From assembly GCA_964388175.1 (NCBI GenBank), contig CAYLYS010000001.1:908-64907 (forward strand): a DNA stretch of 64,000 bases. The letters are read 5' to 3'. Below the pieces are notes generated by a model that was given only the letters and a program-made list of their open reading frames with translations, did not search any database and was not told the DNA's origin. How positions within the stretch are numbered: the stretch's first letter is position 1; the number at the start of each line of letters is the position of its first letter. Source of the stretch: an uncultured Chromatiales bacterium (GTDB taxonomy: Bacteria > Pseudomonadota > Gammaproteobacteria > SZUA-140). The position numbers and the translations under genes are program-made. This document shows positions 19,087-60,848 of this stretch, one piece after another.

Positions 19087-19162
19087 GCTGGCGTAGCTCA
19101 GTCGGTAGAGCAGCTGATTTGTAATCAGCCGGTCGGGGGTTCGATTCCTCTCGCCAGCTCCA
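19087..19162 (+). tRNA. tRNA-Thr (anticodon UGU)
   Basis: 76-nt cloverleaf: acceptor GCTGGCG/CGCCAGC, D-arm GCTC-AGTCGGTA-GAGC, anticodon loop TTTGTAA (anticodon TGT), T-loop TTCGATT, 3' CCA. Its 3' 48 nt are repeated exactly at 32761-32808. Confidence 0.9.
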
Positions 19163-19199
19163 ATACTTAGATCACTTATCCACAGATCACGAAGCGCCT

Positions 19200-19217
19200 G
19201 TGGACCACTCTTGGACC
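19200..19217. repeat. 18-bp motif GTGGACCACTCTTGGACC (copy 1, attL-proximal)
   Basis: Near-identical copies occur at 19278-19294 (inverted) and 32626-32643 (direct, attR-proximal). Candidate integrase/RDF arm sites. Confidence 0.5.
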
Positions 19218-19277
19218 GATCGCCGGGAACATTCCACCATCAGCCACAGCAGAAACGCACGTTTTTTGCTGCTCATT

Positions 19278-19294
19278 GGTCCTGGAGTGGTCCA
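19278..19294. repeat. inverted copy of the arm motif (GGTCCTGGAGTGGTCCA)
   Basis: Reverse complement is TGGACCACTCCAGGACC. Lies between the tRNA and int. Confidence 0.5.
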
Positions 19295-19541
19295 TATGAG
19301 AAGGAGATAGGTTTTAACCTATTAATATTTATCGTAAATAATCCTGTATTATCCTGATTATATATCAGATGTTGCCCGCTATCGCAGCTTACGGTAACGT
19401 GTAATATCTAGAAAAAAGCAGGCCCCGGAGACGCTGGAACGTCGCCCGAGGCCTTGACCACGACAACCCGTCAGGAGGTTGTGATGGCGTCTCGCCAGCC
19501 TACCCGCCGCAGTCGCTCCGCGCCACCCAAGGCGCGCTGAC

Positions 19542-20684
19542 ATGGCGACCATCGACAAACGCACCGACAGCAAGGGCGTCTCCATGTACCGGGTGCGCGT
19601 TCGGATGAAGGGCGTTCCGCAGCAGGTGGCATCCTTCCGCAGCCTGACCAAGGCCCGTCAGTGGGCATCGGCGACCGAAACCGCTATCCGTGAAGAGCGC
19701 CACTTCCCGACCAGCGAGGCAAAGCGCCACACCCTGGCCGAACTCATCGATCGCTATAAACGCGACGTGCTGAGCGCGAAGAAGCCCAAGACGGCTCGTC
19801 ACCAGGGTCAGCAACTTGATTGGTGGAAGGGTCAGCTCGGCGCCTACAGCCTGGATAAGATCACGCCGGCGAAGGTGTCGGAGCATCGGGACAGGCTGCT
19901 TCAAGAACCGATACCAGGCCCCGACGACAAGCCGCCAAGATACCGCGGGCCGGCGACGGTCGCCCGGTACATGGCGGCGCTCTCCCACGTGTTCACCATT
20001 GCGGTGAAAGAGTTGGGATGGGTTCAGGAGAATCCATTCGCCAAGGTCAGCAAGCCCAAGGAGCCCGGCGGCCGCGTTCGGTTCCTGTCTGATGATGATC
20101 CCCTTCCGAGCGGCGAGATCTTTGAGGGCGAGCGCACGCGCCTCCTGAAGGCGTGCAAGGAGAGTTCGAGCCCGGATCTGTATCCCGCGGTCGTGCTGTC
20201 TCTCAGCACCGGTGCCCGCAAGATGGAGTTGATGGGGCTTCGCTGGCGTCAGGTTGATCTGGTGCGCGGCATGATCACCCTCGAAGACACCAAGAACGGT
20301 GAGCGTCGGGCGCTACCGCTGGCCGGGCATGCGCTCGAACTGATGCAGGCCCGCGCGAAAGTGCGTCGGCTCGATTGCGATCTCGTTTTCCCGAACCCTG
20401 CGGATCTCGCTAGGCGTGAGAAGAACCCGGCGCACGTCGTGCGTCCCGTGGATCTTCGCGCGCCCTGGGAAGCGGCCCTGGCCGCTGCCGGCATCGAGGA
20501 CTTCCGCTGGCATGACCTTCGGCACTCTGCTGCTTCCTACCTCGCCATGTCCGGTGCATCGCTTGCGGAAATCGCCGAAGTGCTCGGGCACAAGACCCTT
20601 GCCATGGTGAAACGGTACAGCCATCTGTCTGACGCGCACGTCGCCCGCGTGGTGGCGAAAATGAACAGCCGGGTGTTCGGATGA
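19542..20684 (+). CDS. int: tyrosine-type site-specific recombinase / phage integrase
   Basis: 380 aa with a C-terminal catalytic domain carrying HDLRHS (HxxR) and VKRYSHL (Tyr nucleophile). About 380 bp from the tRNA. Confidence 0.9.
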   Translation: MATIDKRTDSKGVSMYRVRVRMKGVPQQVASFRSLTKARQWASATETAIREERHFPTSEAKRHTLAELIDRYKRDVLSAKKPKTARHQGQQLDWWKGQLGAYSLDKITPAKVSEHRDRLLQEPIPGPDDKPPRYRGPATVARYMAALSHVFTIAVKELGWVQENPFAKVSKPKEPGGRVRFLSDDDPLPSGEIFEGERTRLLKACKESSSPDLYPAVVLSLSTGARKMELMGLRWRQVDLVRGMITLEDTKNGERRALPLAGHALELMQARAKVRRLDCDLVFPNPADLARREKNPAHVVRPVDLRAPWEAALAAAGIEDFRWHDLRHSAASYLAMSGASLAEIAEVLGHKTLAMVKRYSHLSDAHVARVVAKMNSRVFG

Positions 20685-21865
20685 ATGCGAAGCGCCCAAA
20701 GCCGAAGCGTCCAGAATCTTCCGGGGTCAACCAGGATCTGTGGGACTTTTGGGATCGGTACGAGGACAAGAAGGCGGATCGCAAGGAATGGGATGCGGTG
20801 CAAACGCCTACCGCAACTGATAAGGCGCTCAAGGAAACCCGTCTTGCGGATCTGGACGCTGAGCTCGCGAAGCTCGACGAGGAATATCAGTGCTTTGTCA
20901 GGCGCGCTCAGGATGCTGATCAAACTACGAACCTGTCTGGGCGGGATTGCTTTACGCTCGGCGTGCTGGCCGCGCGCTGGAACGTGGCAGAGCATGATGT
21001 ATTCCGATGGGCCAGCAGTGGCGCATTGCCCACCGTGGTGCGTCCCGATGCACCGGAATCACTACATGGCGTGTCGTCTGAACTCCTGGAAGACGTGGTG
21101 GCCGCGCGGGTACTGCTGGTGTCGCGCGAGGACCGTGACCGATTCGAAGTGGCGCTACCCAACTACGTGACGCACGCCGCAATGGAGGCGAGCGCCAAGT
21201 GCGGCGGCTTGAGCGTCGAAGCGTGGGCGGAACACTCGGGTCAGAAGATTGCTCCAACCACGGAAGGCGGGCGCTTCGTGAGCGGCACGCTGGAAGAAGC
21301 GGCACGCGCGCTGGCTAGGCAGGAAGGGTGGCATGACGGTGCGCTCGATACCCTTTTGAAGCAGATGGTTCAGGCGGTCAAGGACGGAAGTCTGACCGCG
21401 CGCCATCCGCATACCGGCATACCTTATCGCCCTGATCCCGTGCGCACGTTCTACGAGTTCGTCACCGCGGTGGACGTGAACGTCTGGCTCGCGAGCCAGG
21501 CGGTGGACTACCGGATGGAGACAGGCGGGAGCGGCGAAGCGCCAATGGATGTCAACGTGTGCCAACGCAAGGACGCGGGGCCAGCGAACGGCGCGGTCGC
21601 CAATGATTGGTTGGAAGACGACAGCCTTCTGAAAATTGAGAGGCAGCAGCGCGCCATCTTGGAAGTGATCACCATGAAGAGGTGGGATCCTATGGCCGTG
21701 CCGGATGGCGAAAAGGGAACCATCCGTCAGATATGCGAGGAGGATGATAGGTATAGGGATCTGTTCTCTGCCACATCTTTCGAGCGTGCATGGAGCGCCG
21801 GTGTTCGTGCCGATCCGCCCAAGTGGCGGATGCAGAGTCACGCATCTTTCGCCAAGGGAAAGTAG
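20681..21865 (+). CDS. hypothetical protein (island)
   Basis: 394 aa with no recognisable domain. Start overlaps the int stop by 4 bp (ATGA), suggesting translational coupling. Confidence 0.5.
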   Translation: MNAKRPKPKRPESSGVNQDLWDFWDRYEDKKADRKEWDAVQTPTATDKALKETRLADLDAELAKLDEEYQCFVRRAQDADQTTNLSGRDCFTLGVLAARWNVAEHDVFRWASSGALPTVVRPDAPESLHGVSSELLEDVVAARVLLVSREDRDRFEVALPNYVTHAAMEASAKCGGLSVEAWAEHSGQKIAPTTEGGRFVSGTLEEAARALARQEGWHDGALDTLLKQMVQAVKDGSLTARHPHTGIPYRPDPVRTFYEFVTAVDVNVWLASQAVDYRMETGGSGEAPMDVNVCQRKDAGPANGAVANDWLEDDSLLKIERQQRAILEVITMKRWDPMAVPDGEKGTIRQICEEDDRYRDLFSATSFERAWSAGVRADPPKWRMQSHASFAKGK

Positions 21866-21992
21866 CAGGGAGCCCGCGACACCTACGAACACCCACGAAC
21901 ACCTACTTCCCTCGCTATCGTACGCCTACTCCCGCCTCCCGGATGATGTGCCGTAGCCAGCGATTGCTGGCGAAAATGTGAGGCGCATCATT

Positions 21993-22196
21993 ATGACTGA
22001 CGTAAATATGCTCACCGTCGCGCAGCTCGCTACGCGGCATCCAGCGTTCTCGCAGGCATCCCTGCGGCACTGGATATTTCATTCCGAGAATAACGGCCTG
22101 GCCGCATCCGGGGCGCTGATTCGTTTGGGCCGGAAAATCCTGCTTGATGAGGCGGCGTTCATTCGCTGGGTGAAGTCGCACCGGGCATGCGCGTGA
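21993..22196 (+). CDS. AlpA-family / excisionase-like helix-turn-helix DNA-binding protein
   Basis: Short protein with LTVAQLATRHPAFSQASLRHWI ... GRKILLDEAAFIRWV, typical of AlpA/Xis HTH_17 regulators of satellites and prophages. Confidence 0.65.
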   Translation: MTDVNMLTVAQLATRHPAFSQASLRHWIFHSENNGLAASGALIRLGRKILLDEAAFIRWVKSHRACA

Positions 22197-22356
22197 GGCT
22201 GCCGAAAATGAAAACGCCCGGCGGCAACCGGGCGTCGAGAGAGCAAAGCAAATCCAGGACCAATCGTAACCGCCAGCACAGCCAAGCGCAACCGGGTATC
22301 CCGCAGAGCACGGAGCAATGGCTGGCGTTCGTTCGGCGTGCTGCGAGGGACGGCCG

Positions 22357-23223
22357 ATGAGCGCGGATATCCTGCTGTCCCGCTTGGAGGGGGTCCGGGA
22401 TCGCGGTCACGGCCGGTGGATGGCGTCGTGCTGCTCCGGGCTGCATGATGATCGCAATCCGTCGCTGTCGATCCATGAAACCGCCGACGGAACCGTCCTG
22501 ATCAAATGTTTTGCGGGGTGTAGTGCCGCCGAGATCGTGGCCGGCGTCGGCCTCACGCTCGCGGACTTGTTCCCGGAGAAACTGACCCACCATCGGGCAC
22601 CGTTGCGAAATCGTGTTCCGGCGGCTGATCGCGAACTGATCGAGCGCGCCAAGCGGCAAGAGCAGGCCGAACGCGAGCGCAGACATGCCGACGCAGCGGA
22701 CAGGGCTCGCACACTCTGGGAGCGCGCACAGCCCGCCACAAGCCACGGATACCTGACGGCCAAGGGAATCAAGCCTTACGGCGCCCGCACGCTCTCCGGG
22801 CTTCTGGCGCTGCCGGTGCAGGACTTCGACGGACAGATACACAGTCTCCAGTTCATCGCCGGCGACGGTGGCAAGAAGCTGCTTTCCGGCGGGCAGAAGA
22901 AAGGCCGCTTCATCTCCGTTCGGTGGACGGGTGCGGACCGGCTGCTGATCTGCGAGGGCTTCGCAACCGGCGCAAGCTTGGCCGAGATTGAGCAGGGCTC
23001 CGACGTGCTCGCGGCCATCGATGCCGGCAACCTGTTGCACGTTGCCTGTGAGGCTCGCAGGCGCTTTCCTGGGCGCGAGATCGTCATCTGCGCGGACAAT
23101 GACCCGGTTGGCGTTGAGAAGGCACACGCGGCCGCTGCTGCGTCTCGGGCACTGGTGGCCATTCCCGAGACCGAGGGCGCGGACTTCAACGACATGCACC
23201 GCCGGGAGGTGGCCGCATGGTAA
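22357..23223 (+). CDS. DNA primase (P4-alpha-like zinc-ribbon + TOPRIM domain)
   Basis: Zinc ribbon CC-H...C-x-x-C (ASCCSGLHDD...IKCFAGCS) followed by a TOPRIM acidic pattern (LLICEGFATG ... IVICADNDPVG ... GADFNDM). Start set at MSADILL. Confidence 0.7.
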   Translation: MSADILLSRLEGVRDRGHGRWMASCCSGLHDDRNPSLSIHETADGTVLIKCFAGCSAAEIVAGVGLTLADLFPEKLTHHRAPLRNRVPAADRELIERAKRQEQAERERRHADAADRARTLWERAQPATSHGYLTAKGIKPYGARTLSGLLALPVQDFDGQIHSLQFIAGDGGKKLLSGGQKKGRFISVRWTGADRLLICEGFATGASLAEIEQGSDVLAAIDAGNLLHVACEARRRFPGREIVICADNDPVGVEKAHAAAAASRALVAIPETEGADFNDMHRREVAAW

Positions 23224-24776
23224 CGATCAATGCGATTCCTCCGGTGCAGGAGGAGCAGCCCCAAGAGGAAAAGGAGCGGAAGTCGGCGTCCACGACCCTG
23301 GTGGAGCTGGCGCTGGAGCACTTCAGTTTCGGCGTCTCAACGATGGGCGAGACGTTCGCCATACCGAAGCAAGGGCCGAAGATCGTTGCCATGCTTCGCG
23401 GCGCGAAGACGTCATTGCGGGGGCAGTTGTCCAGGCTCTACTTCAGGAGGTGCGGTCGGGCTGCGCCGCAACAGGCGCTTGCCGACGCTTTGCTGGTCAT
23501 CGAAGGTATGGCGCAGGAAAGTGACGAGGAGGAGCTGTATCTGCGCGTCGCCCGTCACGGTGATGATCTTTGGCTGGATCTGGGAGACCAGACGGGTCAG
23601 GCCGTTCGCATCAATTCGGCAGGATGGGAAATCGCCGCGCCGCCGGTGCTGTTCAAGCGGACCGCTCTTATGGGGGCGCTGCCGGCGCCGTCGCGAGGGG
23701 CCACGCTCGATAATCTGTGGGGCCGCCTTAACATCGCCGAATCCGATCGCCCGCTGGTGGTCGCGTCTCTCGTCGGAGCGCTGCATTCAGACATCCCGCA
23801 TCCCGTTCTCGGGATCCTTGGCGAGCAGGGATCGGCCAAGACGACGGCGACGAAGATCCTGGTTTCAATCCTTGATCCCGGACCTGTTCCGCTTCGCAAG
23901 CCGCCGCGTGATGCCGATGGCTGGGTGACGGCGGCGGCCGGATCCTGGGTGGTGGCGCTCGATAACCTGAGTGCGGTTCCGGACTGGCTGTCGGATTCGA
24001 TCTGCCGCGCTGTTACCGGAGATGGAGACGTCCGACGAAAGCTCTACACCGACGGGGAGCACGCCGTCTTCGCGTTCCGTCGCGTCATCCTGATAAACGG
24101 GATCGACCTGGGGGCCCTGCGCGGGGATCTGGGGGAGCGAATGCTGCCGCTTCACCTGGAGCGCATCCCGGACGATGCCCGCCGCCTGGAGCGTGACATC
24201 TGGAGTGCGTGGGATGAGGCCCATCCCGCCATCCTCGGAGCCGTCCTTGACGTGGCAACGAGTGTGACGAGGGTGCTTCCCTATGTCCGTCTGGAGACCA
24301 AGCCGCGCATGGCCGACTTCGCGGTGATTCTCGCGGCCGTCGACAAGGTGCTGGGGACGAACGGACTGGCGCACTACCTCGGGAAGCAGAAGTCTCTCGC
24401 GGCCGATTCTCTCACCGGCGACCCGTTCATCATTGCCATGACTGCGTCAGTCACGACGACGTTCTCTGGCCGGGCGGCCGATCTGCTGGCCCGGCTTCGA
24501 AACGACAGACCGCCGAGGGGCTGGCCAACCAACGCGCGCGCCGTCACCACAAAGCTCAAGCGTCATGCGCCGGCTCTACGGCGCGCCGGCTGGCAGATCA
24601 GCGATGACGGGGGCCGAAACATCGGCAACACGGTGATCTGGACCATTGTTCATCCTGAGATGGTCGGTAAACATCCCTCGTTTGACTCGTATCCTCGTCC
24701 TGATACCCCGGATGACGAGTCAACGAGTCAAACGAGCCAGGAATACGGGCAATCTCAGGAAGAGGTGGTGCTATGA
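23217..24776 (+). CDS. P-loop ATPase, putative replication helicase (primase C-terminal / D5-like)
   Basis: Walker A-like GEQGSAKTTATK, and a DExx-like VVALDN. Lies immediately after the primase, with a 7-bp overlap. Confidence 0.55.
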   Translation: MVTINAIPPVQEEQPQEEKERKSASTTLVELALEHFSFGVSTMGETFAIPKQGPKIVAMLRGAKTSLRGQLSRLYFRRCGRAAPQQALADALLVIEGMAQESDEEELYLRVARHGDDLWLDLGDQTGQAVRINSAGWEIAAPPVLFKRTALMGALPAPSRGATLDNLWGRLNIAESDRPLVVASLVGALHSDIPHPVLGILGEQGSAKTTATKILVSILDPGPVPLRKPPRDADGWVTAAAGSWVVALDNLSAVPDWLSDSICRAVTGDGDVRRKLYTDGEHAVFAFRRVILINGIDLGALRGDLGERMLPLHLERIPDDARRLERDIWSAWDEAHPAILGAVLDVATSVTRVLPYVRLETKPRMADFAVILAAVDKVLGTNGLAHYLGKQKSLAADSLTGDPFIIAMTASVTTTFSGRAADLLARLRNDRPPRGWPTNARAVTTKLKRHAPALRRAGWQISDDGGRNIGNTVIWTIVHPEMVGKHPSFDSYPRPDTPDDESTSQTSQEYGQSQEEVVL

Positions 24777-25138
24777 GGGCCGTACTCGACCGCCTCGCCG
24801 CGCTCGGCATCCGTGTCCGCCTGACCAAGGATATGCGCCTGTCTCTCTCGCCGGTTCCGCCGCCGGACCTGGTCGACGACGTGCGGTCCTGCCGCGACGA
24901 GATAATTCAGCACCTGATCCGCACTCGCAACGCCGAGTCCCGTATCCGTAATTGGCTCGCTCATATCCGTGAAACCGACCCCGGCGTTATCGACGAGGTG
25001 CTGGGGAAATGCGCAGCCGACCCCGAGGCGTTGGCGTACTTCATGACCCGAGCCGCCGAGGTGCCGCCGATCAAGCGTGTGGCCGGGCGGACGGTTCATG
25101 GCGCGGAAGTGGTGACGGGGGGAACCGGCGATGCCTGA
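24773..25138 (+). CDS. hypothetical protein (island)
   Basis: 121 aa. Start overlaps the upstream gene by 4 bp (ATGA). Confidence 0.4.
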   Translation: MRAVLDRLAALGIRVRLTKDMRLSLSPVPPPDLVDDVRSCRDEIIQHLIRTRNAESRIRNWLAHIRETDPGVIDEVLGKCAADPEALAYFMTRAAEVPPIKRVAGRTVHGAEVVTGGTGDA

Positions 25139-25337
25139 CATCCGGACATTGCTTGCCCAGGCCCATGCGCTGGAGCAGGCCGCCCGGCAGCGGCGCCGGG
25201 AGGCAGGCGCCCAGCTCGCCATCCTGCGCGACCAGACCCCGGTCCTGGAGTGGCATCCCCGGCTTGAAGCCCTCGGGCTCGATGTCCGCTCGGCTGAGGT
25301 TCTGATCGGCATGGCGACCGGGAGCGAAGCGCCATGA
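25131..25337 (+). CDS. hypothetical protein (island)
   Basis: 68-aa ORF packed tightly within the operon. Confidence 0.3.
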   Translation: MPDIRTLLAQAHALEQAARQRRREAGAQLAILRDQTPVLEWHPRLEALGLDVRSAEVLIGMATGSEAP

Positions 25338-26242
25338 CTGGCAAGGCGGTGAGGATGTCACCCAAGGGTGACAACGCGGCAAGTGACGCTCTGCCGGCGA
25401 CGGTTGAGGAGCTGAGCGCGGCCCTGGCTGCCATCTTCGAGGATGCCCGCCAGCGAGCTGTCTACCTTGTGGACGCCTACGCACATGCAGCCGGCGAAGC
25501 GTGTGAATCTATCCACATCGCCGAGCGCCAACTGCGCGCCATCAAGCCAGCCGGCGAGTCGGCCGAGTGTACCACGGTACACATTACCGAGCGCGAGGCC
25601 CGCGACATCAAGACGGTGAAACGGCTCTACTGGCCGCGCTCCGATCTCTACACCCTTGCTTGGAATGCCATGGTGGCATTTCACGCTGAGCGGCGCCGGC
25701 GCCCTGGCACACGCGAACTGCTCAGACGCATGCAGGCACTCGATTCAGATCACCGTCCTGTATTGCTGCGCCTTGAAAGGGAAACGATTCACTGGATCGA
25801 CGACGCGAGCCGCGCCAATAGCTTTCTTCGCCAGATGCCGGAGATGCTCCTTTGCGCGCTGGTTGAAAGAGATGACGAAAGGGTCGCTGAAATACACGCC
25901 CGGCGCGATAACGCCGATCGAGCGCTTAGAGATATCGAGTGCTCGGGGAGGCTGATCGATGCTTACCGGAAAATGGCCGGCAAGGTAGGCCGCGACCTCG
26001 GCGAATACTGGGGTATTCCAAGCGACGCCGATTTCCTGTCCCAATGGCCTTCCTTCCTGACGCAGGGTCTTCTGGGAAATTCAGAAGCGAGGCGGGAGAC
26101 GGAGCGCGCAGAACCCCGGGAAGGTGGCGTGGCCATTCCGGTCATGCTCGACGGAGCATCGCCCTTCCTTGATGGGCCGGCGGTGAGCGAGATGCCATCG
26201 GCCATTCAGTTCCCGTCATTTGAGATCAAACACTACCCCTGA
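25334..26242 (+). CDS. hypothetical protein (island; immediately upstream of terS)
   Basis: 302 aa with no recognisable domain. 4-bp overlap with the preceding ORF. Confidence 0.5.
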   Translation: MTGKAVRMSPKGDNAASDALPATVEELSAALAAIFEDARQRAVYLVDAYAHAAGEACESIHIAERQLRAIKPAGESAECTTVHITEREARDIKTVKRLYWPRSDLYTLAWNAMVAFHAERRRRPGTRELLRRMQALDSDHRPVLLRLERETIHWIDDASRANSFLRQMPEMLLCALVERDDERVAEIHARRDNADRALRDIECSGRLIDAYRKMAGKVGRDLGEYWGIPSDADFLSQWPSFLTQGLLGNSEARRETERAEPREGGVAIPVMLDGASPFLDGPAVSEMPSAIQFPSFEIKHYP

Positions 26243-26254
26243 GGAGGAGGGCGC

Positions 26255-26776
26255 ATGAAGGCAAAGAAGAGCGCTCCGAGAGCCAAGGCGGGCACGTCGA
26301 AAGCCCCGCAGCGAGGGAAGGGATGCGACCAGACCAAGACCAGGCCGATGATTGGCAGGCCGCGCCAGTTTCCTGATGAACAGATCGAGCAGGCGTTTTC
26401 TCTGATGGCGGAGGAGGGCGTGTCGCTCAAGGCTGCGTGCCAGGCTGTCGGGATTGCCTATGACGCGACGCGGCAGAGGATATATAACGATCAGCGCCTT
26501 TCTTCCCTGCACGCGCGCGCGAGAGAGGATTACCTGGACGTGCGCGTGCAGGAAATGAACGAGATTGCCAAAACAGAGCCGGACGTTCAGCGCGCCCGCC
26601 TGATGTGCGACAACATCAAATGGGAAGCCGCCCGCGTCCTGCGCAAGAAGTACGGCGACCGCTTGGAGGTTGACCAGAACATCAATAACGTGAAGTCCCT
26701 GTCGGATGAGGACCTGGAGCGTGAAATCAATGCGTACATTGCGAAGATCGCAGAAGAGCGAGCTTCGGGGGCTTGA
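26255..26776 (+). CDS. terS: terminase small subunit (P22 gp3-like, GP3_package family)
   Basis: GRPRQFPDEQIEQAF...ARLMCDNIKWEAARVLRKKYGDRLE parallels P22 gp3 (GRNPKFESPEALWAAC...; RAKL..D.RKW.LSK..PKKYGDK). Confidence 0.7.
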   Translation: MKAKKSAPRAKAGTSKAPQRGKGCDQTKTRPMIGRPRQFPDEQIEQAFSLMAEEGVSLKAACQAVGIAYDATRQRIYNDQRLSSLHARAREDYLDVRVQEMNEIAKTEPDVQRARLMCDNIKWEAARVLRKKYGDRLEVDQNINNVKSLSDEDLEREINAYIAKIAEERASGA

Positions 26777-26994
26777 CGCAGCCGAGGACGGCGAGGCATA
26801 GTTTCCGCACGGGGCGTAGCAACCCCTCACGTAGCGGATACCGCACCCGTCAGCCAAGCGGTATTTTTATGCCTGTCTTCCAGGCAGTTCGGTTTATGCC
26901 GGGTGTCCGTCCGAATACAACAGCCTTCGCGCGAATAGGCGGGCCGTCTACGTGCGGTGCTACCCACCCGGCACCCATAACCGGAGGAACTGCC

Positions 26995-27273
26995 ATGACT
27001 GACCAAGCCGCCACCATCGATGTCACCCGCAGCGCTGTCGCAGCCGTCTGCGCGGAGCTGAACCGCCTGGAGCAGGAAACAGACGCTTCGTCCTTCAAGG
27101 AAGTGATCGAGTATCTGCGCGACAGCGGCTACGCCGTCACTGAACTGCCGAACGATGGCGGGTATGGCCTTCTGGCCGTCAGCCTGACAGAGCGCGGCCT
27201 GCGTCGCCTGGCGGCTCTTGAGAAGCTGAGTGATCTCGCCATCGAGGCGCAGGACTGCGGAGGTGACGCATGA
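26995..27273 (+). CDS. hypothetical protein (island)
   Basis: 92 aa. A GGAGGA RBS precedes MTDQAATIDV, which is an internal start within called ORF 26773..27273. Confidence 0.45.
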   Translation: MTDQAATIDVTRSAVAAVCAELNRLEQETDASSFKEVIEYLRDSGYAVTELPNDGGYGLLAVSLTERGLRRLAALEKLSDLAIEAQDCGGDA

Positions 27274-27620
27274 GCGCCGGGCAGGATTCGCCGGCTAGGC
27301 GTGTGCGCTCTGTAGTCAGCTACGCCGTAGCGGTCGAGCAGGATAACCGCCTGATGCATCTGACGCCGTATATGATTAGCCCAGTGGCCGCAGAGAGAGC
27401 CTTAGAAGAGCTTAAGCCTGAGCATCCCGCGGCGCACGTTGTCGAGAGAGTTCGCGAAACGGTTGTGGATGACTCCCTCTCTTCGCGCCCTAGCTCTTCA
27501 ATTCAGGCGTCCGGCCGACAGATTCCATGCTTTTCCATGGAGGAGGCGGGAAGGCTGGTTGATGCCGGAATGCTGTGCGAGGCGATTGATCGGTTCAACG
27601 AGGACGCTGATAGACGCTAA
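27270..27620 (+). CDS. hypothetical protein (island)
   Basis: 116 aa. ATGA overlap with the upstream gene. Confidence 0.4.
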   Translation: MSAGQDSPARRVRSVVSYAVAVEQDNRLMHLTPYMISPVAAERALEELKPEHPAAHVVERVRETVVDDSLSSRPSSSIQASGRQIPCFSMEEAGRLVDAGMLCEAIDRFNEDADRR

Positions 27621-27702
27621 AGGCGGCTATCGAGAAGAAGCGTGATGCACTACCCGCCCGGACCGGCACCGGGCGGGCACCCCTTCCCCTGTACGCGACA
27701 AG

Positions 27703-27999
27703 GTGACCGAATTGAACCGACCTCCCGCCAAGCTTGGGCGCAAAACCCTGTCGATCCTGGTGCAGGCCATCATCGACCAGCTCGAATACGAGTTTCCCCC
27801 GGCTGATGGCTACGACATTGCCGAGATTATGCTGTGGCGCCGGGTCATCTATCAGGCGATCCGGGATGCTGCTGAGGGCGATCAGGAAGCCCGCCAGTTC
27901 TTCAGCACGGAGGATCTCAAGGAAATATCCGACCGTGCCGCTCTGGATCCTGAGGCAGTCCGCCGGCGGGTGAAGGCGCAGGGCTGGGTTGTGCTATAA
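27703..27999 (+). CDS. hypothetical protein (island)
   Basis: 98-aa acidic protein. Confidence 0.4.
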   Translation: MTELNRPPAKLGRKTLSILVQAIIDQLEYEFPPADGYDIAEIMLWRRVIYQAIRDAAEGDQEARQFFSTEDLKEISDRAALDPEAVRRRVKAQGWVVL

Positions 28000-28052
28000 C
28001 AGCGCAAAGAAGAGGGCGCCGCCCAGAGCCGGGCGACGAAACGGGAGGGTTC

Positions 28053-28835
28053 ATGAAGCTGTTTCTGCTCGCCGCTGCTGCGGTTCTTTCGGGATGCGCT
28101 ACGCCGCTTGTTCAAAACTTCTGGGGCGAGTCGACCGCCCCGGGTATGGCCTATGAGATGTCGATCGATGCGCTGGCCGCACGAACGCAGGCCCAGCCCC
28201 GCAGCTACATCATCTTCCCCGGAAATGACGATGTAGAACTTAGCGATCTCCAGTATCAGGAATACGAAACGTACCTGGTGCGCGCTCTGGAAATTCGCGG
28301 GTTCGAGCCCGCCGGGAACCCGGAAGATGCGAAAATCGCCGTCGCGTTCATGTATGGCATCGGAGAACCGGTGATCACGGAACGGACCTATATGCGGCCG
28401 ATCCGGGGAAAGACAGGTATCGCGTCCTCAAAGACCACCGGAGACGCGACGAGCACAGAACGCTACGGGCGCCGCAGCGTCTCATACTCTGAGACGACGA
28501 CCTACACGCCGTCGTATGGGGTTATTGGCTATGTGCCGGAGACTAAAACGACCGTGTCCTATATCCGGCACGCGATTGTGATTGCCTACGATCTCTCCGA
28601 GTATCTCGCGACCGGAAAGGAGGTCGAGCTGTGGAGGACAGTGGTGCAGAGCGAGGGGCCGACCGACGACCTGAGGCGCGCCATGCCGGTACTGATCGGC
28701 GCCGCCGCTGAGCACATGGCAACAAGCACGGGGAAGAGGCTATCCGTTCGCATGTCGGAGAATGCGCCGGTGGTTCGTGCCGTGCGTGGAGAGGTCACGA
28801 TAGACGCTTCCCAAGCGATCAATCACGCGCCCTGA
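28053..28835 (+). CDS. lipoprotein (island moron)
   Basis: Signal peptide with lipobox LSGC, 260 aa, no known domain. Confidence 0.55.
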   Translation: MKLFLLAAAAVLSGCATPLVQNFWGESTAPGMAYEMSIDALAARTQAQPRSYIIFPGNDDVELSDLQYQEYETYLVRALEIRGFEPAGNPEDAKIAVAFMYGIGEPVITERTYMRPIRGKTGIASSKTTGDATSTERYGRRSVSYSETTTYTPSYGVIGYVPETKTTVSYIRHAIVIAYDLSEYLATGKEVELWRTVVQSEGPTDDLRRAMPVLIGAAAEHMATSTGKRLSVRMSENAPVVRAVRGEVTIDASQAINHAP

Positions 28836-28900
28836 GATCCATCCCGGCTTCTGGACAGAATGACCAGAAGTCCACGACCGCAGATCACGGTATTATCGAA

Positions 28901-29263
28901 TCACCTGACCTGAACGTCGACCTCATACTTTTGCGTGGGAGGGAATGCCTCCAGCCACAGCTTCTGCTGCCGCATGTATTCGTCTTCGTCAGCAAGCCAT
29001 TCCTGCAAAACCGCCGGCTGGCCGGTGAACACCATGTAGTAAGGGATGTATCCCTTCCAAGGCTGTTGAAGCGAGTATTTCCAGATCCACCGGTCGGCGA
29101 TGAACTGCGTCTGAGAGGGTTCGCCCAGGACGGCTTTCACTTCATCCGGGGTCATGCCTGGCGCGAGTTGATTGGTTTTTGATACCGAGCCGAAGCCGCC
29201 CACCCCAGTAGCACAGCCCGCAATGAACGCGAAGAGCAACAGCAGCGCTAAACACCTTTTCAT
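28901..29263 (-). CDS. lipoprotein with BamE/SmpA_OmlA-like fold (island moron)
   Basis: MKRCLALLLLFAFIAGC lipobox, followed by GMTPDEVKAVLGEPSQ, resembling the BamE N-terminal motif. Start reassigned to the internal Met. Confidence 0.5.
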   Translation of the reverse strand: MKRCLALLLLFAFIAGCATGVGGFGSVSKTNQLAPGMTPDEVKAVLGEPSQTQFIADRWIWKYSLQQPWKGYIPYYMVFTGQPAVLQEWLADEDEYMRQQKLWLEAFPPTQKYEVDVQVR

Positions 29264-29345
29264 AATGCGACCCCTTCTGTCGGAACCTAGATCGGCCGCC
29301 GTAGCGCGCCTACCGCGAAAGCATGTTATTCCATCGGCACGGTAA

Positions 29346-30071
29346 TTGGTGGATTTAGGCGGGGAATCGCAGCGACATAGCCCGAAAGTATTAGGGCGGG
29401 ATCCGCCTGAGTTAATGCGAAGCGCCGCCGACTGGATCGACGCCAACCAGCTCGGGCGGCGCAATCTCACGCCGGATGCGTTCAAGCTGCTGCTGGGGAG
29501 AAGGTATAACCGGGCGAAGAAGGCGCAGACGGATGGCGGCAAAGGCACCGCCAAGCAAACCGTAGATCAAATTGATCCACGGTTATCCACCGCTCAGTCA
29601 CTCGCCCAAACCCACGGCGTCAGCGAAGCGACGGTGAAGCGGGCCGGCTACAAACTCATGCAGGACGATCGCATCTAGGCCGTCATCGAGCAGGGGCGCG
29701 CCGAGCTCCTGGAAGAGCTGAAGATGGAGCGTGACACCATCGCTCGGGAGATGGCCGCGCTCGGGTTCGCCAGCATGGGGGATTACATCGAGATCGATGC
29801 GGACGGCTCTCCCCGCTTCAAGCTCGGCGAGCTGACGCCAGCGCAGCTCCGCGCCATTCAGGAGATCATCATCGAGGAGCCGGCGACCGGGGGCCGGAAG
29901 GTTCGCCTGAAACTCCATGACAAGCGCGCTGCTCTGGTGGATCTGGCCAAGCTGCTCGGGTTTCACCGCGAGGTTTATCTGTACGGCCAGGCCTCGGGGC
30001 AGGGCGACGCGCCGGCGGTGCCGTGGATCGTTCAGCCTGTCGCGCCGGCGCCGGGCGCTGGCCCACGCTAA
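29346..30071 (+). pseudogene. terminase small subunit (Terminase_2/P27 family) interrupted by in-frame amber codon
   Basis: ORFs 29346..29678 and 29724..30071 share one frame, separated by TAG at 29676-29678. Read through, the product shows an HTH (GVSEATVKRAGYK) and the C-terminal motif GGRKVRLKLHDKRAALVDLAKLLGF typical of TerS. Confidence 0.55.
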
Positions 30072-30227
30072 CTTCGGCTGGTCATCCCGGGTGTCGGAGG
30101 CGGGTGGCCTCGGTTATGCGTTAGTCTGTCCCCCCGATTTGTCCTAAAATGCGTTCGTCGGTATGACGGCGTGTGTGCCCATGCTCGGGCAACGAGTTAT
30201 ATGGCGGGGATCTGGGGAGGGTGGCAG

Positions 30228-31076
30228 ATGGAAGCGAGACTAAAGCTCAAATACCTCGGCCCAGCAGTTGAAGAAGGGCTAATGGACGTCTATCAGGCGT
30301 CCGCGAACATGATTGCTTTCAGCGAATTCATGGTTGTTGCTGCTAAGGCAGCATATGGGGAGAAAATTGAGGCTCGGGCGGAAGTCGCGGGATTTGGTCG
30401 CGGCTCATTCATTACTCATCTCGTTTTCAGCTTTGCTGGCCCCATAGCTACTATTATTTCTGCTGCGACACCAGACCATCTACTGCGCATTACCAATGAT
30501 GCGTTTCACATATGGAAGCACCTGAGAGGATACCCAGCAAAGACTATCGAGCAAACCGATGGTCAGATGGTAAATGTTACAAACAATGATGGGGATATTG
30601 TTCAGGTTCGTATCGAATCGCTTCAGATCGTATTCAACGAGAAAGCGACGGATGCGGCTGGTCAGTTTGTCAGAGCGCAGCTATCCAATAGTGGTTTTGA
30701 TGGATTGAAGGTTGAGTCTGACAAGGGCGTTGTCGCCGAAGTAGATCAGGATGATGCTAATTCCTTCAGGGCTGTTGTTACGTCGGAATCAATCACGGAT
30801 ACGGCGATGGATGTTACGCTTATTCTTGAGGCGCCAGTGTTCAAGGATGGAAATAAGTGGCGCTTCAGTGATGGGCAAACCTCATTCTACGCCGATATTG
30901 TTGACCGGGAATTTATGGCTCGCGTAGATGCCGGAGAGCTTTTCGGGAAAGGGGACTGGCTGAGGGTTAGTTTAAGGTTGGTTCAGGATCGATCAGGGGC
31001 GAAAATCACGACCGAACGCACGGTGCTCAAGGTTTACGAGCACAGGAGGGGAATGGATCAGAACAAGTTGTTTTAA
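30228..31076 (+). CDS. hypothetical protein, cargo gene A (no recognisable domain)
   Basis: 282 aa, start at MEARLKLKY preceded by a GGAGGG RBS. Lies in the lower-GC block. Beta-rich C-terminal two-thirds. Confidence 0.55.
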   Translation: MEARLKLKYLGPAVEEGLMDVYQASANMIAFSEFMVVAAKAAYGEKIEARAEVAGFGRGSFITHLVFSFAGPIATIISAATPDHLLRITNDAFHIWKHLRGYPAKTIEQTDGQMVNVTNNDGDIVQVRIESLQIVFNEKATDAAGQFVRAQLSNSGFDGLKVESDKGVVAEVDQDDANSFRAVVTSESITDTAMDVTLILEAPVFKDGNKWRFSDGQTSFYADIVDREFMARVDAGELFGKGDWLRVSLRLVQDRSGAKITTERTVLKVYEHRRGMDQNKLF

Positions 31077-31425
31077 GTGCGCCCAGAAGACCGCGTGGCC
31101 GCAGGTGCCGCCGAGCTCGCTGATAGCCGCTTTGGCGAGCTGATCATGTCCTGCGCGTAGTGAAGGCTGGTCAAGGTGCTCGGCCATCGTCGCCAGGGCG
31201 GCGGCGTCGATCAGGTTGCGGTGGGCTCGGTCGTATTCGTTGGATTAGATCGGTGTCGCGCTGACTGTTTCGTCGGTTCCTTCCTTCTAAAGCTTGGCTA
31301 CCGCCGACAATCTTGCCTGCCCGCAATACAGAATAAGAAAATTCGTTGTTCCGGCCGACAATAATCTAAATAAAGAAATTATTGCTTCTCTGGACGTGAG
31401 TGAGGCGATTCTTGTGGGAGGGGGG

Positions 31426-32385
31426 ATGTTATCTAGTGCAAGCTGCCGTCGAATATTCAACGGTTTTATGCGGCGATGCGACAACTTTCTAGATCGACCA
31501 TGGGTAATTTTTCTGGGGCCGATGGTTATAGTCGTGCCTTACAGCTTCTTGCTCGCTTATTTTCAGATTGAACAGTTCCAAAGTGGCGTCCAAAAGCACC
31601 TCCCCTTGATTGCTGGGTTTGTTGACGGAAGCCCGGTTATGATCATTGTGTTGGCAACGATTTACTTTTATTCTTTCCCCGCATTCGATAGATTTGTGCG
31701 TGCGTACAATCGAAATAATGGGATAGATGCTGGTTCGGCCCTTAAGTTATTCAAAGTATTAGAGGAAATTGTTGGCGCCAAAGATCGTCGTTTTGGAATC
31801 ACGACGTCGAAAGTCGTGGCGGGTGAAAACATAAGCCCTGATCAGGCTTTTGATACGATTACCCAACCGCACCAGCAAATAGCTCTTCTAGTACAAGGTG
31901 TTCATACGTTTTTTGACGCAATTAATTCCAAAAACGTAAAGTTGCGAGTCAGTGCGGTTACGATCAGAGATGGAGCGCCCGATTGTTGGTTGTATTACTG
32001 GCCGACAGGTGATCCTCCTCGAACACCAATTGAGATTTTGAGGTCACCTGACAGTAGTATTTGTACTGCGGTTCGTAAGAGAAAGCTTGTCGTTATTGAG
32101 GATAGGCAGAAGGAAACTAGAAATGGCGGCGGGCACGTATGGAAAGACGCTGGCGTTGACGCTGGCGTTGAGGGATCGTTACTATGCTACCCTGTTTGGC
32201 ACCATTATACGACTACGATCCCGTATGTCCTGACTATTGTCGCCGACGAAAAGGGTTATTTTCGCAACGCCCAAGTTGAGCTTTATGAATGGATTCTTCG
32301 GCATTTTGCTGTTCGGATTGGCTTGGAACACAGCTTAGTCCTCCTTAAGGAGAGGGCTTGCGGAGAAGATCATGGCAAAGCTTAA
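31426..32385 (+). CDS. hypothetical membrane protein, cargo gene B (2 N-terminal TM helices + cytoplasmic domain)
   Basis: A GGGAGG RBS precedes MLSSAS. TM1 is WVIFLGPMVIVVPYSFLLAYF and TM2 is VMIIVLATIYFYSFPAF. The ~200-aa C-terminal domain resembles a GAF-like fold only weakly. Lower-GC DNA. Confidence 0.55.
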   Translation: MLSSASCRRIFNGFMRRCDNFLDRPWVIFLGPMVIVVPYSFLLAYFQIEQFQSGVQKHLPLIAGFVDGSPVMIIVLATIYFYSFPAFDRFVRAYNRNNGIDAGSALKLFKVLEEIVGAKDRRFGITTSKVVAGENISPDQAFDTITQPHQQIALLVQGVHTFFDAINSKNVKLRVSAVTIRDGAPDCWLYYWPTGDPPRTPIEILRSPDSSICTAVRKRKLVVIEDRQKETRNGGGHVWKDAGVDAGVEGSLLCYPVWHHYTTTIPYVLTIVADEKGYFRNAQVELYEWILRHFAVRIGLEHSLVLLKERACGEDHGKA

Positions 32386-32557
32386 GCAAATACGCGGTAA
32401 GTCTACAAACAGATCGTCTTCGATGACGGTTCCGTCAATCATTGTGTTGGATGCTGATACGCTTGAATCCAGTCGACGGATCAACGCCAAAAAAATCAAG
32501 AAATCTGTTAAGACTGATTTAGCAATTCTTAGAAAACATAGCTTCCAATCTGGGTAA
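32372..32557 (+). CDS. small basic protein, cargo gene C (61 aa)
   Basis: A GGAGA RBS precedes ATG. Overlaps the end of gene B by 14 nt. Lys/Arg-rich. Confidence 0.35.
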   Translation: MAKLKQIRGKSTNRSSSMTVPSIIVLDADTLESSRRINAKKIKKSVKTDLAILRKHSFQSG

Positions 32558-32760
32558 GCTAATGGGCGAAGAGCTTTAATCTGTATCCTTGATCGTTGCT
32601 GACTCCAGCAATTCCCCGCAGTTCCGTGGACCACTCCTGGACCGCTTGCCCGCAAAAAACGGCCGTAATCGACGACAATTCACCATTGCGACGGGACTGT
32701 AAGGCGCTGATAGTTCTGCGGTATATTGTTGCCTATTAGCGTCGCTTATAGTGCGGCCGG

Positions 32761-32808
32761 GATTTGTAATCAGCCGGTCGGGGGTTCGATTCCTCTCGCC
32801 AGCTCCAA
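32761..32808. repeat. attR: 48-bp direct repeat of tRNA-Thr 3' half
   Basis: GATTTGTAATCAGCCGGTCGGGGGTTCGATTCCTCTCGCCAGCTCCAA is identical to 19115-19162. No 5' half of a tRNA precedes it. Confidence 0.9.
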
Positions 32809-33079
32809 TCTCAAGATCGTTCCGCTGACACAGGAAGTGGCTCAGGCAATGCCGGGCTGCTCTTTCCTATCGCGTTGCTCTCATTGCGGTTTCGCAGGAT
32901 GAAAACGGCGTCGCTGATGATGACGCTGGCTTCCTGGGTGACGGGGTTTGTGCCGGTCAGGCTTGCGGCCTCGTCCGCGGGCGTTTGCTCCGCCGCAGCA
33001 CACTATCTATGATAGCGTCATGTCGAGCGCGCGGGCGGGCCGCGCGGGGTTCGCCGACTGCCTGCAAGCCAGTAGGGAG

Positions 33080-60502: not shown

Positions 60503-60848
60503 GGGAGTCGGCCGGACAGTCGCTCGCGGTTTTGCCGCGGGAGGAAAGTCCGGGCTCCACAGGGCAGGGTGCCAGGTAATGCCTGGGCGGCGCGAGCCGA
60601 CGGAAAGTGCAACAGAAAATATACCGCCCGCCGTTCGCGGCGGGTAAGGGTGAAATGGTGCGGTAAGAGCGCACCGCGCTGGCGGTAACGTCAGTGGCAG
60701 TGCAAACCCCACCCGGAGCAAGACCAAATAGGGGAACGATGGCGCGGCCCGCGCCGTTCCCGGGTAGGTCGCTCGAGGCGCGCGGCGACGCGCGTCCCAG
60801 ATGAATGACTGTTCTCGACAGAACCCGGCTTACAGGCCGGCTCCCTCT
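60503..60848 (+). ncRNA. rnpB: RNase P RNA, bacterial class A
   Basis: Conserved blocks colinear with E. coli M1 RNA: GGAGGAAAGTCCGGGCTCCACAGGGCAGGGTGCCAGGTAATGCCTGGG ... AGGGTGAAATGGTGCGGTAAGAGCGCACC ... CCACCCGGAGCAAGACCAAATAGGGG ... AGATGAATGACTGTTCTCGACAGAACCCGGCTTA. Confidence 0.9.

Follow-up and report, generated by a model that had tools for sequence, protein, structure and literature searches.

Mosaic junction relics that derive from illegitimate recombination occur in phage and prophage genomes. Among phage satellites, the PICI layout consists of an integrase, a primase-replicase and a TerS, with no structural or lysis genes, and cargo is found "after the terS homolog" (PMC10085698). 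The small terminases of PICI and SaPI satellites redirect helper packaging. For one small-terminase family, Terminase_2 (PF03592), the structural prototype is G1P of the SPP1-like phage SF6 (PDB 3zqq/3zqp).

The 64,000-nt stretch of DNA analysed here (the window) contains a 13.6-kb island (19163-32809) that is bounded by exact 49-nt direct repeats of the 3' end of tRNA-Thr(TGT) (19087-19162). The left boundary, attL (19116..19164, + strand), comprises the 3' 49 nt of the tRNA gene, and the right boundary, attR (32761..32809, + strand), is the direct-repeat copy; the Logan contig L109 ends 30 nt inside the attR repeat. The island encodes an integrase (19542-20684, PF00589), a Toprim primase (22318-23223, phrog_2249) and an intact Sf6-type TerS (26255..26776, + strand; PF20901, 50.1 bits; phrog_1482, 2.9e-20), the gene for which is conserved in the related elements L104-L107 at 95-98% identity in DNA. 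No matches to capsid, tail, lysis or capsid-morphogenesis families were found in the island. Its combination of integrase, primase, TerS and att repeats with no structural or lysis matches is PICI-like, and as judged from gene content it fits a satellite-like element of PICI layout.

Further genes of the island include two lipoprotein genes, a low-GC 363-aa ORF of unknown function, and a 72-aa ORF (21978-22196) that looks by eye like an AlpA/excisionase HTH protein and has no Pfam match. Near the right end is a candidate anti-phage defence gene, PDC-S42 (30228..31076, + strand; PADLOC PDLC05015, 1.1e-46; phrog_3243, 5e-43). It is low in GC (49%) and absent from the sister islands L107 and L108, and a literature search found no papers on PDC-S42. 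Decay is also seen elsewhere in the island, where an ORF (25334-26242) spans a deletion of ~4.8 kb relative to L104. An arrangement of tandem elements separated by a degenerate internal att site was considered and rejected, as no such site was found; only a 17-nt arm-type motif is held in common.

Upstream of PDC-S42, two called ORFs (29346..29678 and 29724..30071) share a reading frame that is interrupted by one stop codon only, a TAG at 29676-29678. The initial annotation had joined them into a second small-terminase homologue of ~240 aa, and this reading of the frame is correct. Counted from the TTG at which the mechanical ORF call begins, the read-through frame has 241 codons. From the ATG at 29415, where an 87-aa gene call in an NCBI-derived collection begins, the read-through product is 218 aa long. 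TAG aside, the ORF is clean and contains no frameshifts. In databases the locus appears as two hypothetical proteins of 87 and 115 aa that are seemingly unrelated. We suggest that the pair is probably an inert mosaic gene relic, located in the variable cargo end of the tRNA-Thr-integrated, satellite-like island.

The C-terminal two thirds of the read-through product are of small-terminase type. The Pfam profile Terminase_2 spans the stop, matching read-through residues 87-207 to profile positions 23-131 of 141 with 44.1 bits (E=4e-11; gathering score 26.1 bits), whereas, taken separately, the C-terminal piece falls short of the gathering score with 25.0 bits and the N-terminal piece gives no match. 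The alignment to the Terminase_2 HMM that had been proposed as a check thus comes out in favour of the family. Likewise, the score against phrog_51 (terminase small subunit) is 1.9e-9 for the read-through product versus 0.005 for the C-terminal half. The closest intact TerS (P0001) aligns ungapped across the stop with 61.6% identity over 151 residues (BLASTP); it is one of four intact metagenomic TerS proteins of 218-230 aa (P0001-P0004) that show 51-62% identity, ungapped, covering only the C-terminal ~69% of the query. As the Terminase_2 alignment continues across the stop, the ORF pair is more than a chance juxtaposition.

This part of the locus (29649..30071, + strand) is a 5'-truncated terS of Terminase_2 type, with the end of the recognition helix, the long helix, the beta-rich oligomerisation core, and the native C-terminus and stop. 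The first ~79 residues of the family, as present in intact relatives, are missing. In 34 intact relatives the N-terminus is a basic tail followed by the consensus LTxKQxRFvxEYLiDxNAtqAAIRAGYS; in the read-through product the family's own N-terminal HTH is absent, positions 1-22 of PF03592 are unmatched, and an unrelated module occupies their place. What is retained is well preserved. Of 23 strongly conserved TerS columns (at least 80%), 21 are kept, and intact relatives deviate at 0 to 7. The C-terminus, ...WIVQPVAPAPGAGPR before the stop, is the same as the ends of P0001 and P0004, save for one I/V difference from P0001. The C-terminal motif ...RKVRLKLHDKRAALVDLAKLLGF had been named as typical of Terminase_2, and it does fit the consensus VRRvKfKLHDKRAALVDLAKhLGmF of the 34 intact relatives. 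Annotated TerS proteins of phages reach no more than about 30% identity, and the TerS part of the locus is a new, distant member of Terminase_2. In P0001-type relatives terS heads the late module, with TerL and portal genes downstream; no TerL family match was found among the island ORFs.

The segment that precedes the TerS portion, here called the N-module (29424..29648, + strand), is an uncharacterised DNA-binding module of the form DWIDANQLGRRNLT...GRRYNRAKK...HTH (STAQSLAQTHGVSEATVKRAG). It has no Pfam, PHROG or NCBIfam match by which it could be named. At the amino acid level it is 66-70% identical to residues ~78-155 of the phage methyltransferases P0005 and P0009, and the homology to P0005 begins at residue ~78 and ends near residues 155-187. 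Normally the module sits between the ParB-N and MT-A70/Dam domains of such methyltransferases, or stands alone in short proteins of 79-101 aa that end soon after the HTH (P0178, P0211, P0139, P0134 and P0146). Among 5.8 billion protein clusters these two kinds of protein made up a second class of match, namely hundreds of ParB-N + MT-A70/Dam methyltransferases of ~370 aa together with the short proteins; the methyltransferase-class matches cover only the first ~75-100 residues of the query (AADWIDANQLGRRNLTPDAFKLLLGRRYNRAKK...STAQSLAQTHGVSEATVKRAG). All of the nearly invariant columns of the N-module are retained in the window, where the chimera has no Pfam match to ParB-N or to a methyltransferase catalytic domain. 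The HTH GVSEATVKRAGYK, which had been taken for that of a TerS, is therefore the recognition helix of the methyltransferase-type module.

Because the N-terminus of the family has been replaced by an unrelated module, the read-through product is a chimera and not a TerS, and the description as a second small-terminase homologue holds for its C-terminal two thirds only. The breakpoints are at 29424 and 29648/29649. At the first of these, similarity to the methyltransferase type starts sharply at codon 27 (29424): earlier codons agree in 0-1 of their 3 bases, later ones in 2-3. This similarity stops at codon 100/101, and TerS similarity sets in from codon 102 (TAC, 29649). The recombination junction between N-module and TerS (29646..29651, + strand) thus reads GGC/TAC (Gly/Tyr). 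It preserves both the reading frame and the structural register, and lies where the recognition helix of the HTH ends. On its left side, VKRAG is of the methyltransferase type (KRAGKFA in P0013, P0061 and P0009), and on its right side Y(K/E)LMQD is of the TerS type. In both parents the Gly of the turn lies 11 residues before the crossover (GVSEATVKRAG/Y versus GYSRASARQRA/Y). Short microhomologies are present at the left breakpoint (GCCGC.GA at 29424-29431) and at the HTH junction (CGN-GCN). Some apparent resemblance to methyltransferases past the junction (VIEQG) was dismissed as chance or family-typical, as intact TerS relatives have AIEQ or AIEEGQ at this position.

An AlphaFold (AF2) model of the 218-aa read-through product has a mean pLDDT of 70.9. 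In the model an unbroken helix (71-83) runs across the junction, the amber residue 88 lies in a loop, and a helix (90-124) and a beta-rich core follow. The top PDB match to the model in Foldseek was the SF6 TerS 3zqq, at a non-significant level (E=0.35, TM 0.12-0.16), and a PDB sequence-profile search with the read-through product returned nothing relevant. Random breaks would not usually fall in register inside the recognition helix of an HTH. Together with the continuous modelled helix, the in-frame, in-register junction has the look of a functional domain swap that was once under selection.

The fused architecture is without precedent in the databases searched, and is probably non-functional here. 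It was not seen among the matches listed from the 5.8 billion protein clusters, nor in any of 4024 matches from a filter-free HMMER search of 1.84 billion representatives, each of which covers either residues ~3-100 or ~60-218. Scans of representative genomes, IMG/VR and JGI metagenomes, which included the junction peptide GYKLMQDD, yielded N-module genes only. At the level of representative-genome contigs, the loci recovered were distant N-module loci only. A simple deletion between adjoining methyltransferase and terS genes was rejected as the origin of the fusion, since the two belong to separate modules in intact phage contigs: the methyltransferase is in the replication module and terS is at the start of the late module. 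No terS was found within 88 N-module loci (633 kb in all).

The left breakpoint is also visible on comparison with two sister islands, which were recovered through neighbouring genes. L107, from a JGI metagenome, is 97.8% identical to positions 25804-29431 of the window and diverges exactly at 29431/29432; L108, a Logan contig, is 86% identical over 28157-29431 and has the same breakpoint. Beyond 29431 both continue into an intact small gene on the minus strand (73/85 aa, ending in ...LCGASH before the stop), the last 62 codons of which specify an identical protein in L107 and L108 despite a DNA difference of 11-14%. The window keeps the last 17 nt of this gene (29415-29431) and a start-less, indel-bearing remnant at 31103-31240 (- strand), which represents its degenerate 5' part on the right side of the disrupted target. 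Within the remnant, 60 nt (31174-31233) are 90% identical to L107 and L108, and similarity is weaker further left. Since the small gene is intact and conserved in both sister islands, the empty site is ancestral and the segment ~29432-31100/31173 is an insertion or replacement. The chimera and PDC-S42, being absent from both, were thus inserted as cargo, and the insertion broke the small gene. The opposite polarity, with the sister islands as deletion derivatives, was rejected because their copies of the gene are intact and identical in 62 codons, while the copy in the window is start-less and carries indels.

It follows that the earlier view of the pair as a remnant of a former packaging module of the island does not hold, as L107 and L108 lack the block and have the small gene intact. 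Nor was the cargo inserted into or next to a former packaging region: the TerS fragment is itself inserted cargo, and its ATG belongs to the backbone. Of the three options that the initial annotation had offered (decaying remnant, sequencing error, or amber-suppressed device), decay remains the best, provided that the remnant is not attributed to the island's own packaging genes. A larger degraded prophage was rejected as the source, since none of the other ORFs of four parental-type loci leaves a trace in the window; tblastn with all ORFs from these loci gave matches at 29424-30068 only. GC content across the region is a patchwork: the chimera has 62-66%, PDC-S42 49%, the small-gene remnant 63% and the 363-aa ORF 46%. 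Joint transfer of the TerS fragment and PDC-S42 from a phage was considered and finds no support: PDC-S42 homologues in 9 viral loci have neither a TerS nor an N-module neighbour. The two differ in GC content by 15 points.

The insertion also accounts for the 5' end of the chimeric ORF. This end (29415..29431, + strand) is borrowed, in that the ATG and ~5 codons are island backbone, antisense to the end of the small gene. There is no native start or RBS for the chimeric ORF, and the ATG at 29415 is common to islands without the gene. A sigma-70-like promoter on the + strand was not found in 28800-30400, the consensus scan being weak in an organism of 66% GC, and no terminator was found around the ORF.

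The stop codon itself (TAG, 29676..29678, + strand), which falls in the loop that connects the HTH to the long helix, has a simple origin. In a codon alignment its counterpart is CAG (Gln) in two relatives, P0001 and P0003, and GAG (Glu) in a third, P0002. One substitution therefore creates the TAG, and the alignment shows its origin in a single step. In the wider family the position is variable (Gln, Glu, Leu, Ile or Arg), and none of the homologues compared has a stop there.

The distance of a single base from the CAG of the closest relatives would also suit an error of sequencing or consensus calling in this metagenome-derived assembly, or a variant present in a minority of cells, in which case the real gene would be the intact 218-aa chimera. 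The TAG would then be artefactual, recent or polymorphic, and the product would be a working domain-swapped TerS, now or recently, beside a defence gene; as cargo of the island it would be, within this reading, either a second small terminase with a new target or a protein directed against packaging. The remainder of the ORF is intact and conserved and the junction is in register, both of which are compatible with such a gene. The TAG is known from one assembly, in a single contig of 114.6 kb, and no independent contig spans the site: among contigs fetched via neighbouring genes, L098-L103 stop at 29024 or 29246 and L109 starts at 29904. Logan contigs from the same sample (SRR16797981) are 100% identical to the window on both sides and break at 29246 and 29904, which suggests strain heterogeneity. 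However, substitution errors in an assembly consensus are rare. Exact look-ups of variants with Q, E, K, W or Y at this position were negative, and a sense-codon version, full-length or partial, is absent from a collection of 15 billion proteins. Even with a sense codon the ORF would be without native start and promoter, its architecture is unseen elsewhere, and the window contains no TerL partner. We therefore consider an artefactual TAG in a working gene to be quite unlikely. If it were true, the swapped HTH might retarget the packaging motor of a helper phage to a new site, or the protein might act as a decoy that sabotages phages with a related TerS.

A programmed use of the stop was also proposed, whereby read-through or amber suppression would set the ratio of an HTH-only product to the full-length chimeric TerS. 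According to the model, the stop would lie in a loop between two domains, which makes structural sense for two products. Against this, the window encodes no tRNA besides Thr-TGT, and hence no suppressor tRNA; TAG is the terminator of about 10 of 39 high-GC3 ORFs within the window, i.e. about a quarter of the confident ones; no Rfam element is present at the site; and relatives have an ordinary variable residue in place of the stop. Such a device is extremely improbable, and this part of the initial annotation finds no support.

A third possibility is that the two pieces function separately. The 87-aa product would be an HTH regulator, about the size of the natural stand-alone N-module proteins (79-101 aa), and the 115-aa product might in addition be re-initiated at the ATG at 29724, 6 nt upstream of which is a GAAGAG. 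As a component of this proposal, the second product would be a TerS core without a DNA-binding domain that acts as a decoy and poisons the terminase of phages with a related TerS, alongside PDC-S42. The conservation of the core (21/23 columns) and the adjoining defence candidate are in line with this, and satellite proteins against phage terminase are known, as Gpi of PLE binds TerL (bioRxiv 10.1101/2024.04.22.590561). However, the ATG at 29415 belongs to the backbone and serves as a start only by accident; it is preceded by a weak GAG, and no promoter is predicted. In each of the three homologues for which DNA was fetched, the place of the ATG at 29724 is taken by CTC, a Leu codon inside the gene. 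The GA-rich stretch before this ATG is inherited coding sequence (GAGGA in relatives) and not a new RBS. Both pieces of the interrupted ORF occur in this assembly only, and there is no conservation arguing for selection. A split functional gene is thus unlikely, and the decoy, as a part of it, shares this standing.

We return to the gene relic as the preferred explanation, for which the following course of events may be proposed. A foreign HTH module would first have been joined to an N-terminally truncated Terminase_2 terS by illegitimate recombination with short microhomology. In a second event the fragment, beside PDC-S42, would have entered the conserved small backbone gene at its 3' end. 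This placement would have supplied a fortuitous ATG to an ORF that had brought no native start, RBS or promoter. In the last step one base change, in the simplest case from CAG (Gln) to TAG, would have closed the frame. The chimera would have no packaging role, and the working TerS of the island would be the Sf6-type protein. The lack of expression, the status of the TAG as a true mutation and this order of events are inferred. Several observations speak against a relic: the good condition of both halves apart from the TAG, the in-register junction, the likeness in size of the 87-aa product to stand-alone N-module proteins, and the presence of the TAG in a single assembly. Given this condition, either the frame was closed recently or some cells do not carry the TAG. 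Such preservation, taken with the in-register junction, also suggests that the fusion may have been functional in its donor shortly before, as a retargeted TerS.

In practical terms, the database entries of 87 and 115 aa represent one stop-interrupted chimera, and it would be wrong to list this as a further packaging gene of the island. The locus offers a clean, datable case of turnover at the cargo end of a satellite-like island, in which a block with a defence candidate and a small piece of phage DNA inserted into a conserved small gene while sister islands keep the empty site. The in-register HTH graft illustrates how illegitimate recombination can give a small terminase a new DNA-binding head, which is of biological importance only if the gene is intact or expressed.

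Compared with PICI and SaPI satellites, the 13.6-kb element is alike in being flanked by tRNA repeats, and the chimera lies in the accessory region past the terS homologue. The satellite-type TerS of the island is the protein encoded at 26255-26776, not the chimera; unlike a satellite TerS, the latter is absent from sister islands, interrupted by a stop and without a start of its own. With Terminase_2 it shares the long helix, the oligomerisation core, the KLHDKRAALVDLAKxLG motif and the native C-terminus, but it is without the basic tail and the first two HTH helices, is interrupted by TAG and has no adjoining TerL. With the ParB-N + MT-A70/Dam methyltransferases (P0005, P0009) it has in common the segment DWIDANQLGRRNLT...GRRYNRxKK...GVSEATVKRAG, whereas ParB-N and the catalytic domains MT-A70 (PF05063) and Dam (PF05869) are missing from the locus. 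There is also a likeness in kind to the mosaic junction relics of phages and prophages, which are matched in the microhomology at both breakpoints, the patchwork GC, the disrupted target and the truncated parental genes. The locus differs from these in that its internal junction is in exact structural register in the recognition helix of the HTH. As a probable gene relic in the cargo of a mobile element, it is an object of an ordinary kind, with one elegant detail.

Two lipoprotein genes, one DUF4136-like (28053-28835, + strand) and one BamE-like (28901-29266, - strand), lie inside the island. Both are conserved cargo, common to the sister islands L107 and L108 from metagenome contigs but not to the larger related element L104. 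A small gene (...DRAHRNLIDAAALVAMAEHL...GLCGASH) is also conserved in the sister islands (73 aa, L107 3670-3891; 85 aa, L108 247-504), whereas in the window it is broken (31103-31240, - strand). This gene seems to mark the edge of the variable cargo region.

The low-GC candidate anti-phage defence gene PDC-S42 (30228-31076, 49% GC) was identified by a PADLOC match (1e-46) and also matches phrog_3243. Homologues in viral contigs are located near integrases or contig ends, and no mention of PDC-S42 was found in the literature searched. Between this gene and attR there is an ORF with a low GC content of 46% (31294-32385), the length of which depends on the call (319 aa NCBI-derived, 363 aa Logan). 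It has no match in Pfam, PHROG or PADLOC, and may represent either separate cargo or a partner of PDC-S42.

Around the chimera, the amber-stopped fragment joining an HTH module to terS (29415-30071, + strand), the ends of Logan contigs recur at window positions 29024, 29246 and 29904 in multiple metagenomes (SRR297927xx/298xx series, SRR16797981). This pattern suggests strain-level heterogeneity, or k-mers common to related sequence (e.g., phage terS in the same samples).

L104 and L105 are larger than the island in the window, and are 95% identical to it around TerS, the small terminase. When window positions 25137-26242 were compared with L104 3752-9650, approximately 4.8 kb encoding genes of 53, 486 and 906 aa was found in L104/L105 and was absent from the window. 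The deletion junction is near 25800, inside the ORF at 25334-26242 (302 aa), which is probably a fusion artefact. In addition, L104 has a DEAD-box helicase in place of an unannotated 519-aa ORF in the window.

Elsewhere in the window, a class A bacterial RNase P RNA gene (60504-60848, 348 bits) is an ordinary housekeeping gene.

The 17-nt motif TGGACCACTCYWGGACC is present in three copies (19201-19217, +; 19278-19294, -; 32627-32643, +), versus 0.02 expected by chance. All three lie some 40-135 nt from the att cores and probably represent arm-type sites for binding of the integrase or an excisionase, which would suggest that the recombination apparatus of the island is intact. The island itself (13.6 kb, 19163-32809) is integrated at tRNA-Thr(TGT) between exact direct repeats of 49 nt. 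A 72-aa ORF (21978-22196) is a possible AlpA-like gene, without a match in Pfam. The island encodes an integrase, a Toprim primase and an Sf6-type TerS, and no structural or lysis genes were found within it; this combination matches the layout of PICI-like satellites.
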